The notes below the pieces were generated by a model. It saw only the letters and a list, made by a program, of their open reading frames with translations, had not been told where the DNA came from and searched no databases. A program made the translations under genes and the position numbers. Of a stretch of DNA of 64,000 nucleotides, positions 5,567-6,928 are shown one piece after another. Where the stretch lies: the sequence record PP445229.1. One strand, 5' to 3'. Numbering within the stretch: the first letter of the stretch is position 1; each line of letters opens with the position of its first letter. The stretch comes from Escherichia phage EC.W2-6.

Positions 5567-6928
5567 ATGATTGTTATCCCGATTAACCAAATTGAAGATA
5601 AGGTTTCTCAACAACCTGATATCACTGTTGGTCGTCACTTCATTGAGCAATTGATTAATAACAACTTAATTCCAGACGGTATCTGTCCCATCATTACTGG
5701 TGGGGCTGTTCGAGATGCTGTGCTTAATAACACAGCTCCACATGACATTGATATCTTTATTGTCAGAGGACAAACACCAAGAACTCAAAACACATTCATC
5801 CCAACTGACCGTTGGCAAGCTCTTGGAAGAGAGATTGAAAGTAATGTGAAGGAATGGCTAGAGTCACAAGATATCGAGTATGCATCCCTTCTTGCTGAAG
5901 CTACGAACGAATCCTATGCTGGGGGTTCTCAATTAACATTCACTGATATTATTGAGTTTCAGTGGAATGGGGTTCGTATCCAATTCATGTTTAATTATCC
6001 TACTTCTATTGAAGAGGTATTGGATAATTTTCCTATGATGTGTCGTGGTGCGATGACTCTTGACAATTTATTCATGACTTCTCATGGGTATTTGGCTATG
6101 ACCGCCCCCTGTCCAGTGGTTGTTTCTAGTCGTGAAATCAGATACGTTCACAAGAAGTGGCCTAACTCGCAAGTATTGAGATTTTCCTCTCCAGCAGTTG
6201 CACATCAATACATGGCCCAAACTCGATATCTTCCCACACCCCAGCCGGTTAGTCATCTGGTTAATGGATTAGGTCAGGTTTCTCTTATTGAGGATACAAC
6301 AAGTGCTCAATATTGTGTTAACCGAGACATGAGTCGATTCTTTGGAATCCCTTATGAAGAGATTCAGTTAATGTCAAGCATTCATGGCTCTAGCCAGATT
6401 CGTGCATATTGGTCTGAAGGGTTGACAAACTTAACAACTAATACAGGAGGAGATCTCCTTGGTCGAGAAGATGAACCTAATCGGCACAATGCAATTGAAG
6501 GGGTGTTTGTAGCCCCTGCAATGCGCCGAGCACAAGAGTCACGAAGAGTAAGCCCTACTCGTAGAACATCTTTTGAAGAAGCTCTTGGTATTACAAGTGA
6601 TTCTATGGAGAGATGGATGGCTAGTCCTTCTCGTGGTCGTCCAAATGGTTTAACTGTTAGCGCACGTCAGTTCTCTGGTCAGGGTTTTGCTGTTGGTGAT
6701 ATCAACGCACCTGTTAGGGCTGTGTGGACTGATGAAGGTGTGGCCCAAGATGTGGCAGGTAGTCTTGATGTTCCTTCTCATGAGGAACTTGCTGAGACCA
6801 TCAGTCGAAATCTCGCTGACCGCTTTGTTGCTAACAACCCTGAAGTATTAGAACCTCAAACCCGCACAGTTCGGTTTGCCGATGAAGCGGGTCGTGGAAT
6901 CTCTTTTGACATGGAAACAAACAACTAA
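5567..6928 (+). CDS. nucleotidyltransferase of the CCA-adding / poly(A) polymerase (Pol beta-like) family with long C-terminal extension
   Basis: PIITGGAVRDAVLNNTAPHDIDIFIV matches the GGAVRD...DxD head-domain signature of class II tRNA nucleotidyltransferases; start placed at ATG 5567 rather than the upstream in-frame start of the track ORF. Confidence 0.65.
   Translation: MIVIPINQIEDKVSQQPDITVGRHFIEQLINNNLIPDGICPIITGGAVRDAVLNNTAPHDIDIFIVRGQTPRTQNTFIPTDRWQALGREIESNVKEWLESQDIEYASLLAEATNESYAGGSQLTFTDIIEFQWNGVRIQFMFNYPTSIEEVLDNFPMMCRGAMTLDNLFMTSHGYLAMTAPCPVVVSSREIRYVHKKWPNSQVLRFSSPAVAHQYMAQTRYLPTPQPVSHLVNGLGQVSLIEDTTSAQYCVNRDMSRFFGIPYEEIQLMSSIHGSSQIRAYWSEGLTNLTTNTGGDLLGREDEPNRHNAIEGVFVAPAMRRAQESRRVSPTRRTSFEEALGITSDSMERWMASPSRGRPNGLTVSARQFSGQGFAVGDINAPVRAVWTDEGVAQDVAGSLDVPSHEELAETISRNLADRFVANNPEVLEPQTRTVRFADEAGRGISFDMETNN

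Follow-up and report, generated by a model that had tools for sequence, protein, structure and literature searches.

The gene at positions 5567 to 6928 of Escherichia phage EC.W2-6 (PP445229.1; the whole stretch of 64,000 nt analyzed here is called the window) raises the question of whether a phage carries its own enzyme for the repair of tRNA 3' ends. Its product contains the signature of class II CCA-adding enzymes and poly(A) polymerases, and the original prediction had proposed that it repairs tRNA or tails other RNAs. The analysis indicates that the protein is a nucleotidyltransferase (NTase) of the Pol-beta superfamily, whose head is class II-like and whose GG...DxD centre is intact and strongly conserved. 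Judged from alignments and a predicted structure, it has apparently lost motif B (ribose sensing), motif D (base templating) and the domains that bind tRNA, and so would not be a CCA-adding enzyme. The explanation we favour, held tentatively, is that it may be an early, catalytically competent, template-independent NTase serving phage DNA metabolism or counter-defence, with a disordered tail as tether.

Catalytic domain and motif A

The gene and the parts of it that carry this assignment are as follows.

5567..6928, plus strand: NTase coding sequence, 453 aa plus stop codon, orthologue of phiEco32 gp73 and SU10 CDS74
5567..6421, plus strand: folded catalytic domain, residues 1-285, class II-like head and helical neck-like region
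5699..5758, plus strand: motif A, G45-G46-A-V-R49-D50...D60-I-D62-I-F64, the helix-turn GG motif and two metal-binding aspartates

The pair GGAVRDAVL...DIDIF on which the original prediction was based is genuine. GGAVRDAVL corresponds to residues 45-53 (nt 5699-5725) and DIDIF to residues 60-64 (nt 5744-5758), and the protein matches phrog_12715, annotated as 'nucleotidyltransferase', from end to end (E 4e-262). G45, G46, R49, D50, D60, D62 and F64 are invariant in the 28 sequences of the clade alignment, which are cluster representatives from an exhaustive profile search and are mostly 20-40% identical. The ratio of nonsynonymous to synonymous substitution rates (dN/dS) for residues 1-285 is 0.13 in eight Kuravirus orthologues, indicating strong purifying selection.

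AlphaFold2, run with a 36-sequence alignment, predicted residues 1-285 with a predicted local distance difference test score (pLDDT) of roughly 80-95. The NTase has the head-domain fold of class II CCA-adding enzymes and poly(A) polymerase, as the original prediction had read from the motif; among solved structures, its fold comes closest to class II CCA-adding enzymes and to the poly(A) polymerase of bacteria (e.g., 3aql, 1miv, 1ou5, 3h37, and 4wby). The superposition covers just 153-167 residues of solved chains that are 344-415 residues long. CBASS-type cyclases had also been proposed for comparison, and in the structure comparison class II CCA-adding enzymes were the closest, not the CBASS CD-NTases (cGAS/DncV-like).

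The NTase annotation of this gene is already in databases and is not new. Bases 5008-7471 are 100% identical, at the same coordinates, in PQ030848.1 (Escherichia phage EC.W8-1; Kuravirus, Gordonclarkvirinae, phiEco32-like), where the coding sequence is labelled 'hypothetical protein'. The phiEco32 protein gp73, 84.5% identical to the window NTase, is called 'nucleotidyltransferase', and the NJ01 orthologue carries the note 'tRNA nucleotidyltransferase/poly(A) polymerase'. SU10 CDS74 was named 'nucleotidyltransferase', with a class II CCA-enzyme NTase domain, in the 2014 SU10 paper (PMC4281155). The gene is thus a conserved, uncharacterised NTase gene of phiEco32-like coliphages.

Three further NTase PHROGs match the protein more weakly than phrog_12715, and phrog_1614 (E 1.2e-7) is among the weaker PHROG matches. 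The Pfam family PolyA_pol head (PF01743) matches residues 43-124 (E 7e-4) with 20.4 bits and does not reach the gathering cut-off of 23; the orthologue P0001 scores 22.2 bits against the same cut-off. NCBIfam gave no match to the protein, and phmmer with the protein against PDB sequences returned nothing at E <= 10. With a 5-sequence NTase profile against PDB, CCA enzymes appeared amid noise, matched in motif A alone and without significance (E about 1). The word-indexed protein search with the single domain returns close orthologues only, and an alignment query is needed for remoter relatives.

The open reading frame (ORF) list gives an ATG at 5567, a stop codon at 6926-6928 and a product of 453 aa. 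The start is backed by the N-terminus M-I/Y-x-I-P, which is kept across three genera. An alternative GTG start at 5510 was rejected, as it would overlap the exonuclease gene and as the N-terminus MIVIP is conserved.

Motifs B and D and the tRNA evidence

Two segments downstream of motif A take the positions of the canonical motifs B and D.

6029..6049, plus strand: motif-B-equivalent segment, F155-P156-M-M-C159-R-G161, at the position of canonical RRDxTxNA
6113..6163, plus strand: motif-D-equivalent helix, P183-V-V-V-S-S-R189-E190-I-R-Y193-V-H-K196-K197-W-P199, low alignment confidence

When the clade was compared with canonical class II enzymes by hhalign, motif A alone aligned (23 columns, Prob 92%), and without motif A no similarity to them was found (E 0.47). 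The references were three class II sequences copied from PDB alignments and E. coli Cca, which was validated by the same search. The register of motifs B and D was obtained via two collinear alignments, clade to Gad2, a phage anti-defence protein described below, and then Gad2 to the canonical enzymes. That of motif B is moderately reliable; that of motif D is of low confidence, with a shift of one residue possible.

In this register, canonical RRDFT(I/M)NA corresponds to FDFTVCMG in Gad2 and to N-F155-P156-M-M-C159-R-G in the NTase. Across the clade alignment, P156 is invariant, position 155 is F in 20 sequences and M in 8, and position 159 is C in 17, S in 7 and A in 4. By the column counts over the 28 sequences, the arginine pair and the aspartate of RRD are absent from this segment. 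For motif D, canonical F(r)EDxLRxLRAxRF corresponds to Gad2 YPVVSALRVQKY and to C-P183-V-V-V-S-S-R189-E-I-R-Y193 in the NTase; the helix as a whole aligns with Gad2 YPVVSALRVQKYEDKGY, which is itself aligned to canonical F(r)EDaLRmmRAvRF. Q139, Y193 and K197 do not vary; the residue at 190 is acidic (D or E) throughout, and 25 of the 28 sequences have K or R at 196. The templating E, D and R of EDxxR are absent from the clade at this helix, with the low-confidence register noted above.

In class II enzymes, the ribose and the triphosphate are read by RRD, and EDxxR serves as an amino-acid template for the choice of C first and A afterwards. The alpha-helical body and tail domains that bind tRNA were found in the NTase neither by structure prediction nor by superposition. 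Because RRD, EDxxR and the domains that hold tRNA are missing, templated CCA synthesis is not expected. The statement of the original prediction that the region past the catalytic core is unlike the usual tRNA-binding body agrees with this; residues 287-453 are predicted to be disordered.

The tRNA content of the phage gives no reason for CCA addition either. There is no tRNA gene within the 64-kb window. The single tRNA of the phage, tRNA-Arg(UCU), lies outside it (PQ030848.1, 65586-65661) and ends with ...GCGC-A-CCA, so its CCA is encoded in the genome. A phage tRNA in need of CCA addition was rejected on this ground. The proposal of tRNA 3'-end repair is therefore not borne out: motifs B and D are replaced, tRNA-binding domains are lacking, the phage tRNA encodes its CCA, the gene lies among replication and dNTP genes in all relatives examined, and the nearest family with an experimental phenotype is Gad2. 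The result speaks against annotating or modelling the NTase as an enzyme for tRNA CCA repair.

A broader version of this proposal is RNA 3'-end tailing. The NTase would then restore tRNA 3' ends or put poly(A)-like tails on RNA, for instance as a counter to tRNA-targeting nucleases or as a way of speeding host mRNA decay, and the Arg-rich tail would replace the RNA-binding body. Motif A is the class II GGxVRD...DxD signature, the PolyA_pol head is found in 40 of 70 sampled distant relatives, and the C-terminal region of E. coli poly(A) polymerase (PAP) I is also basic and disordered. RNA tailing retains some weight, as the top structural neighbours all work on RNA 3' ends. It is nevertheless unlikely: besides the loss of RRD, EDxxR and the body and tail domains, and the lack of canonical similarity outside motif A, the tail of the NTase is net acidic (-10), the window has no tRNA gene and the one tRNA-Arg encodes its own CCA, and the neighbouring genes encode DNA-replication and dNTP enzymes. 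Its tRNA-repair form is the weaker rival to a template-independent NTase serving DNA metabolism or counter-defence.

The loss of motifs B and D, together with the variable E130, would also fit a catalytically dead scaffold, a degenerate NTase fold retained just as a binding module. The GG pair, R49-D50 and D60xD62 are invariant over deep divergence and dN/dS is 0.13, which makes this explanation highly improbable.

Relationship to Gad2 and the phage NTase superfamily

Gad2 is the second Gabija anti-defence protein. SPbetaL7 without Gad2 becomes Gabija-sensitive, a Gad2 homologue from a Brevibacillus prophage blocks Gabija in trans, and an NTase domain is predicted in Gad2 by AlphaFold (bioRxiv 10.1101/2023.05.01.538930). 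Many orthologues of the window NTase carry the precomputed Pfam match PF26128 (Gad2), which is marked 'faint' for P0001 and 'weak' for P0028; several others lack it. A solid, unmarked match is on record for P0058, from the bridging group described below. A local Pfam-A scan returned no PF26128 row even for P0058; the Gad2 Pfam matches given here are those of the precomputed records.

For a direct comparison, the Gad2 set consisted of nine family sequences from the supplement of the same preprint (bioRxiv 10.1101/2023.05.01.538930). The hidden Markov model of the clade scored 6-18 bits against single Gad2 sequences, in motif A only. The profile-profile comparison with hhalign gave Prob 88% and E 2.9e-6 over 126 collinear columns, ending at Gad2 residue 162. 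The two families are bridged by a P0058-like group of 42 representatives with the motif IIAGGALRD...DFDFGICK. The clade and the P0058-like group match with Prob 98.5% and E 2.5e-15 (E 2.2e-5 without motif A), and the P0058-like group and Gad2 match with Prob 98% and E 1.8e-13 (E 5.2e-5 without motif A). These comparisons point to a phage NTase superfamily of at least three branches, in which the NTase clade and Gad2 appear as distant ends; the window NTase would not be Gad2 proper.

The profile of the clade and P0058 found 441 cluster representatives (50% identity) at E <= 1e-3. P0058 was part of this profile, so the count spans both the clade and the P0058-like group. A tblastn search of phages with P0058 gave a single partial match. 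With two small members as queries, tblastn found LUZ24-like Pseudomonas podoviruses (LUZ24 gp42, PaP3 orf27, and tf) and rV5/phi92-like E. coli myoviruses including BASEL phages, and also Vibrio phages, Klebsiella phages and Bacillus phage 0305phi8-36, most of them annotated as 'hypothetical'. Foldseek against BFVD returned small proteins of phiAS7, Providencia PS3 and Vibrio VEN, with target-normalised template modelling (TM) scores of 0.5-0.6. LUZ24 gp42 follows an exonuclease gene in a replication and recombination module, and its last 64 residues are without lysine.

The superfamily is found almost only in phages, and Gad2 is its sole member with a known phenotype. Its head-type NTases are common in phages, with the 441 representatives occurring in phiEco32-like, LUZ24-like, rV5/phi92-like and Vibrio phages, and nearly all are called 'hypothetical' or plain 'nucleotidyltransferase'.

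The predicted disordered tail and its lack of lysine

Two features describe the C-terminal part of the protein.

6425..6925, plus strand: predicted disordered tail, residues 287-453 (167 aa), Arg-rich, lysine-free, net acidic
6809..6925, plus strand: conserved C-terminal end of the tail, residues 415-453 (…LADRFVANNPEVLEPQTRTVRFADEAGRGISFDMETNN), near-invariant in 8 Kuravirus orthologues

The original prediction had described about 220 residues of low-complexity sequence after the motif, with a long Ser/Arg-rich tail. This description does not hold. The ~220 residues after motif A, residues 65-285, form a confidently folded domain (pLDDT mostly 80-95), and the disorder is confined to the 167 residues 287-453, with pLDDT below 50 for residues 287-420 and 422-453. 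The entropy of the tail is 4.00 bits, compared with 4.18 for the N-terminal domain, and the mean in 20-residue windows is 3.38 compared with 3.46; a low-complexity tail was rejected on this near-normal entropy. Ser and Arg each account for just 9.6% of the tail, and the true oddity is the lack of lysine. Overall, the original prediction named a genuine feature and the right fold class but misdescribed the tail, and its inference of tRNA repair is unsupported. A counter-defence role, as a putative function, is potentially interesting.

Residues 236-453 contain no Lys, 21 Arg, 19 Glu and 12 Asp, with a net charge of -10. The lysine-free run extends over residues 198-453 (6158-6925; 256 aa), and the whole NTase has 4 Lys (0.9%), compared with 6.0% in the proteome. 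After residue 240, all 8 Kuravirus orthologues have no Lys and 17-21 Arg. The 27 other clade representatives contain 1-9 Lys in 274-482 residues, and after residue 200 they contain 0-4 Lys versus 5-26 Arg. Lysine avoidance is clade-wide, although the tails cannot be aligned between genera; a tail of like composition and variable length is present in every lineage. The conserved lack of lysine in a fast-diverging disordered tail represents a constraint and may hint at how the tail is used.

Low lysine content is also seen elsewhere in the window. The DUF6453 protein (34046-35080, minus strand) is poorer still, with 0.6% Lys and a lysine-free run of 284 aa, and two neighbouring late ORFs (31201-32169 and 32182-33234, both minus strand) have 1.6-2.6% Lys.

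One explanation that touches on lysine is the nucleotidylylation of a protein or small molecule, in which the NTase would attach AMP or a similar group to a protein of the host or its defences, or would produce or use up a nucleotide signal, instead of extending a nucleic acid. The absence of lysine over 256 residues could, speculatively, reflect the avoidance of a lysine-directed modification, and the loss of the primer/template-like motifs B and D is compatible with an acceptor other than nucleic acid. Families with such activities score clearly below class II enzymes in the structure comparison, no partner gene such as HEPN or an effector is adjacent, and the activity is without precedent in a class II-type head. 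We consider this explanation quite unlikely and prefer nucleotide transfer to a nucleic acid, with the tail as tether.

The tail is under weaker constraint than the N-terminal domain. Its dN/dS is 0.35 in the 8 Kuravirus orthologues, purifying but relaxed relative to the N-terminal domain. The last ~39 residues are nearly unchanged among these orthologues, with indels in the segment directly upstream. The synonymous rate (dS) in Kuravirus is 0.50 for the N-terminal domain, 0.25 for the tail and 0.13 for the last 39 codons (6809-6925), where dN/dS is higher, 0.45. The low dS at the 3' end of the gene is possibly due to recent recombination or to a nucleotide-level constraint just upstream of the start of the dCTP deaminase gene.

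AlphaFold2 predicted a weak helix and a hairpin at the C-terminal end of the tail, with low confidence. Aromatic residues are enriched at the extreme C-terminus clade-wide (20 of 28 sequences, 13.1 expected), and 1 of 2000 shuffles attained the level of [FWY]x[FWY] seen in the final ten residues; in both counts the sequences are not independent.

Look-alike C-termini are observed in tails that cannot be aligned: ...TTLWIDEASAG in LUZ24 gp42 (5956-6900 of its stretch), ...SPVWMDESDSIAD in EP335 (4001-5278 of its stretch) and ...GISFDMETNN in the window phage. A general acidic-aromatic C-terminal docking motif, W/F-x-D-E, present in Kuravirus, Nieuwekanaalvirus and LUZ24 gp42, was considered and rejected. 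It is not family-wide; it occurs in 13 of 148 sequences (2.2 expected), and 9 of the 13 belong to one closely related group.

Genomic context and conservation

The genes on both sides of the NTase gene are as follows.

5008..5565, plus strand: PolA-type 3'-5' exonuclease subunit (Pfam DNA_pol_A_exo1, E 1.3e-9; phrog_38876/403)
6938..7471, plus strand: dCTP deaminase (DCD; Pfam DCD, E 3.5e-34), starting 9 nt past the NTase stop codon

The stop codon of the exonuclease gene lies 1 nt before the NTase start, with the junction taaAATG. A scan for promoters and terminators around the NTase gene gave nothing beyond the shuffle expectation. The spacing of the exonuclease, NTase and DCD genes and the empty scan are consistent with a single operon. 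In SU10, CDS 69-125 are early genes, and one CDS74 peptide was detected by mass spectrometry among the early products (PMC4281155). The NTase is read as an early gene on this ground.

The gene order is gamma-glutamyl cyclotransferase, primase/helicase, PolA 3'-5' exonuclease subunit, NTase, dCTP deaminase, three small ORFs, a Dps-like protein, thioredoxin and ThyX. It is kept in Kuravirus, Nieuwekanaalvirus (EP335) and Suseptimavirus (ECBP2 and SU7), and also in two remoter metagenomic lineages, P0055 and P0056. The NTase was found by tblastn in 97 phage records. Alignment between genera is limited to roughly the first 235-260 residues, with 29-40% identity.

The neighbouring DCD gene brings up a covalent DNA modification by the NTase and the adjacent deaminase as a possible explanation for restriction-modification resistance in Gordonclarkvirinae. 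The subfamily is unusually resistant to restriction-modification, with no known inhibitor or modification pathway, and the BASEL authors point to the DCD-NTase pair as a possible route of DNA modification (PMC11990801). NTase and DCD are always adjacent in the lineages examined, and the loss of the ribose sensor in motif B would admit dNTP substrates. On the other hand, ThyX, dNMP kinase and thioredoxin form an ordinary set for dTTP supply in a genome of 42% GC, many phage homologues lack an adjacent DCD, and we know of no DNA hypermodification pathway that employs a class II-type NTase. The termini of phiEco32 were mapped by restriction profiling, so its DNA is cut by at least some enzymes (PMC9965538). 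A modification of this kind is accordingly improbable.

Several other genes in this region deserve mention. Three tandem small ORFs at 7472-8087 (plus strand; 65, 69 and 69 aa) are distant paralogues with 22-24% identity and no Pfam match. They share W4, T-R..A-R..K and a C-terminal Y, and are kept downstream of DCD in all three genera. The ORF at 8482-9045 (plus strand), called 'integrase' in PQ030848.1, is Dps/ferritin-like (Pfam Ferritin, E 2.5e-7), and its phiEco32 counterpart gp67 is annotated as 'DNA binding protein, member of the Dps family'. The 'integrase' label is probably a misannotation.

The family A DNA polymerase is split into the exonuclease subunit at 5008-5565 and a polymerase subunit at 14347-16191 (plus strand), about 9 kb apart, and NTase, DCD, ThyX, PhoH and an HNH endonuclease are encoded between them. 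The phiEco32 polymerase subunit carries the note 'lacks 5'-3' and 3'-5' exonuclease domains'. The replication genes are preceded by those for a weak ATP-grasp-like protein (681-1883) and a gamma-glutamyl cyclotransferase (2585-3004, plus strand; GGACT, E 2.8e-17). In phiEco32, both form part of a gene cluster that also encodes an amidoligase, a glutamine amidotransferase and a COOH-NH2 ligase. This ATP-grasp/GGACT cluster is a peptide- or metabolite-modifying module.

Possible function

In the tentatively favoured explanation, the GG...DxD centre would use an NTP or dNTP as donor and pass the nucleotide, with no template, to a hydroxyl group, most probably the 3'-OH of a nucleic-acid end. The reaction may benefit phage DNA metabolism or counter-defence; one way would be to mask or alter DNA ends, or other features that trigger host nucleases. 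The 167-aa tail with its conserved C-terminal peptide may tether the enzyme flexibly to a partner or substrate. This explanation is supported because motif A with its DxD is invariant, dN/dS of the N-terminal domain is 0.13, RRD and EDxxR are replaced, and no body domain is present. It is also supported because the NTase is distantly related to Gad2 via the P0058-like clade, is expressed early and resides among replication and dNTP genes. That Gordonclarkvirinae resist restriction-modification, as cited above, likewise counts in its favour.

Several points weigh against it. The candidate third carboxylate, E130, varies in the 28 sequences (E in 15, S in 5, D in 4, Q in 3 and N in 1). The nearest solved structures are all RNA-acting, and the top neighbours act on RNA 3' ends. 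Between the clade and Gad2, the similarity without motif A has E 0.046, which is background, at the level of the reversed-sequence controls (hhalign scores 13-24). Because the direct similarity falls to background without motif A, the link to Gad2 rests on the intermediate clade. Gad2-like proteins have FD where the NTase clade has FP, and the folded, Lys-rich C-terminal half of Gad2 (~200 aa) has no counterpart in the NTase, whose tail is disordered and lysine-free. The mechanism of Gad2 itself is still listed as unknown in a 2026 review (PMC12904381). In the compact genome of a podovirus, location within a replication operon carries little weight, and the suggested role follows from comparison, as the protein and its close relatives are uncharacterised.

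A more specific form is a counter-defence enzyme. By template-free nucleotide addition to DNA ends, or by nucleotidylylation of a host nuclease, the NTase could blind Gabija, OLD-family nucleases or restriction enzymes, with the lysine-free tether delivering it to the target. Among the papers searched, none named both Gordonclarkvirinae and Gabija. This form is doubtful at present; if true, it would account for the restriction-modification resistance of Gordonclarkvirinae and provide the first mechanism for the Gad2 superfamily.

For the wider template-independent NTase that we favour, the result directs attention to DNA-end and defence-related substrates. The Kuravirus NTase is a tractable E. 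coli representative of the superfamily. It is a core, early gene, and phages with it that grow on K-12 are available as BASEL Bas86-94, whose restriction-modification resistance is unexplained.

Comparison with known systems

Class II CCA-adding enzymes and PAP share motif A, GGxVRD...DxD, and the head fold with the NTase. In contrast to them, the NTase is below the Pfam threshold, does not conserve RRD or EDxxR, lacks the body and tail domains, and carries instead the 167-aa disordered tail, with no sequence likeness beyond motif A. A head can also occur alone in bacteria: S. pneumoniae NP_344798.1 (PDB 2la3) is a stand-alone, tail-less 'CCA-adding enzyme head domain' protein of 191 aa. The NTase is less similar to it than to full-length class II enzymes.

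Gad2 and the NTase are both phage-encoded proteins of ~400 aa with a predicted N-terminal catalytic domain. The elements IAGGA...DxDxxF, the (L/I)Q(L/F)(I/M) strand, F(D/P)xxxC and P(V/I)VSxxRxxxY/KY are collinear in Gad2 and the NTase clade. They differ within motif A, where Gad2 has AIT/TIT and the NTase clade AVRD, and in their genomic surroundings: Gad2 sits in an anti-defence island and the NTase gene in a replication operon.

The small head-only phage NTases (LUZ24 gp42, PaP3 orf27, and those of rV5-like phages, phi92-like phages, phiAS7, PS3 and VEN; phrog_1614) belong to the same superfamily as the NTase. They are mostly 190-320 aa long and without the long tail, and they keep FD where the NTase has FP.

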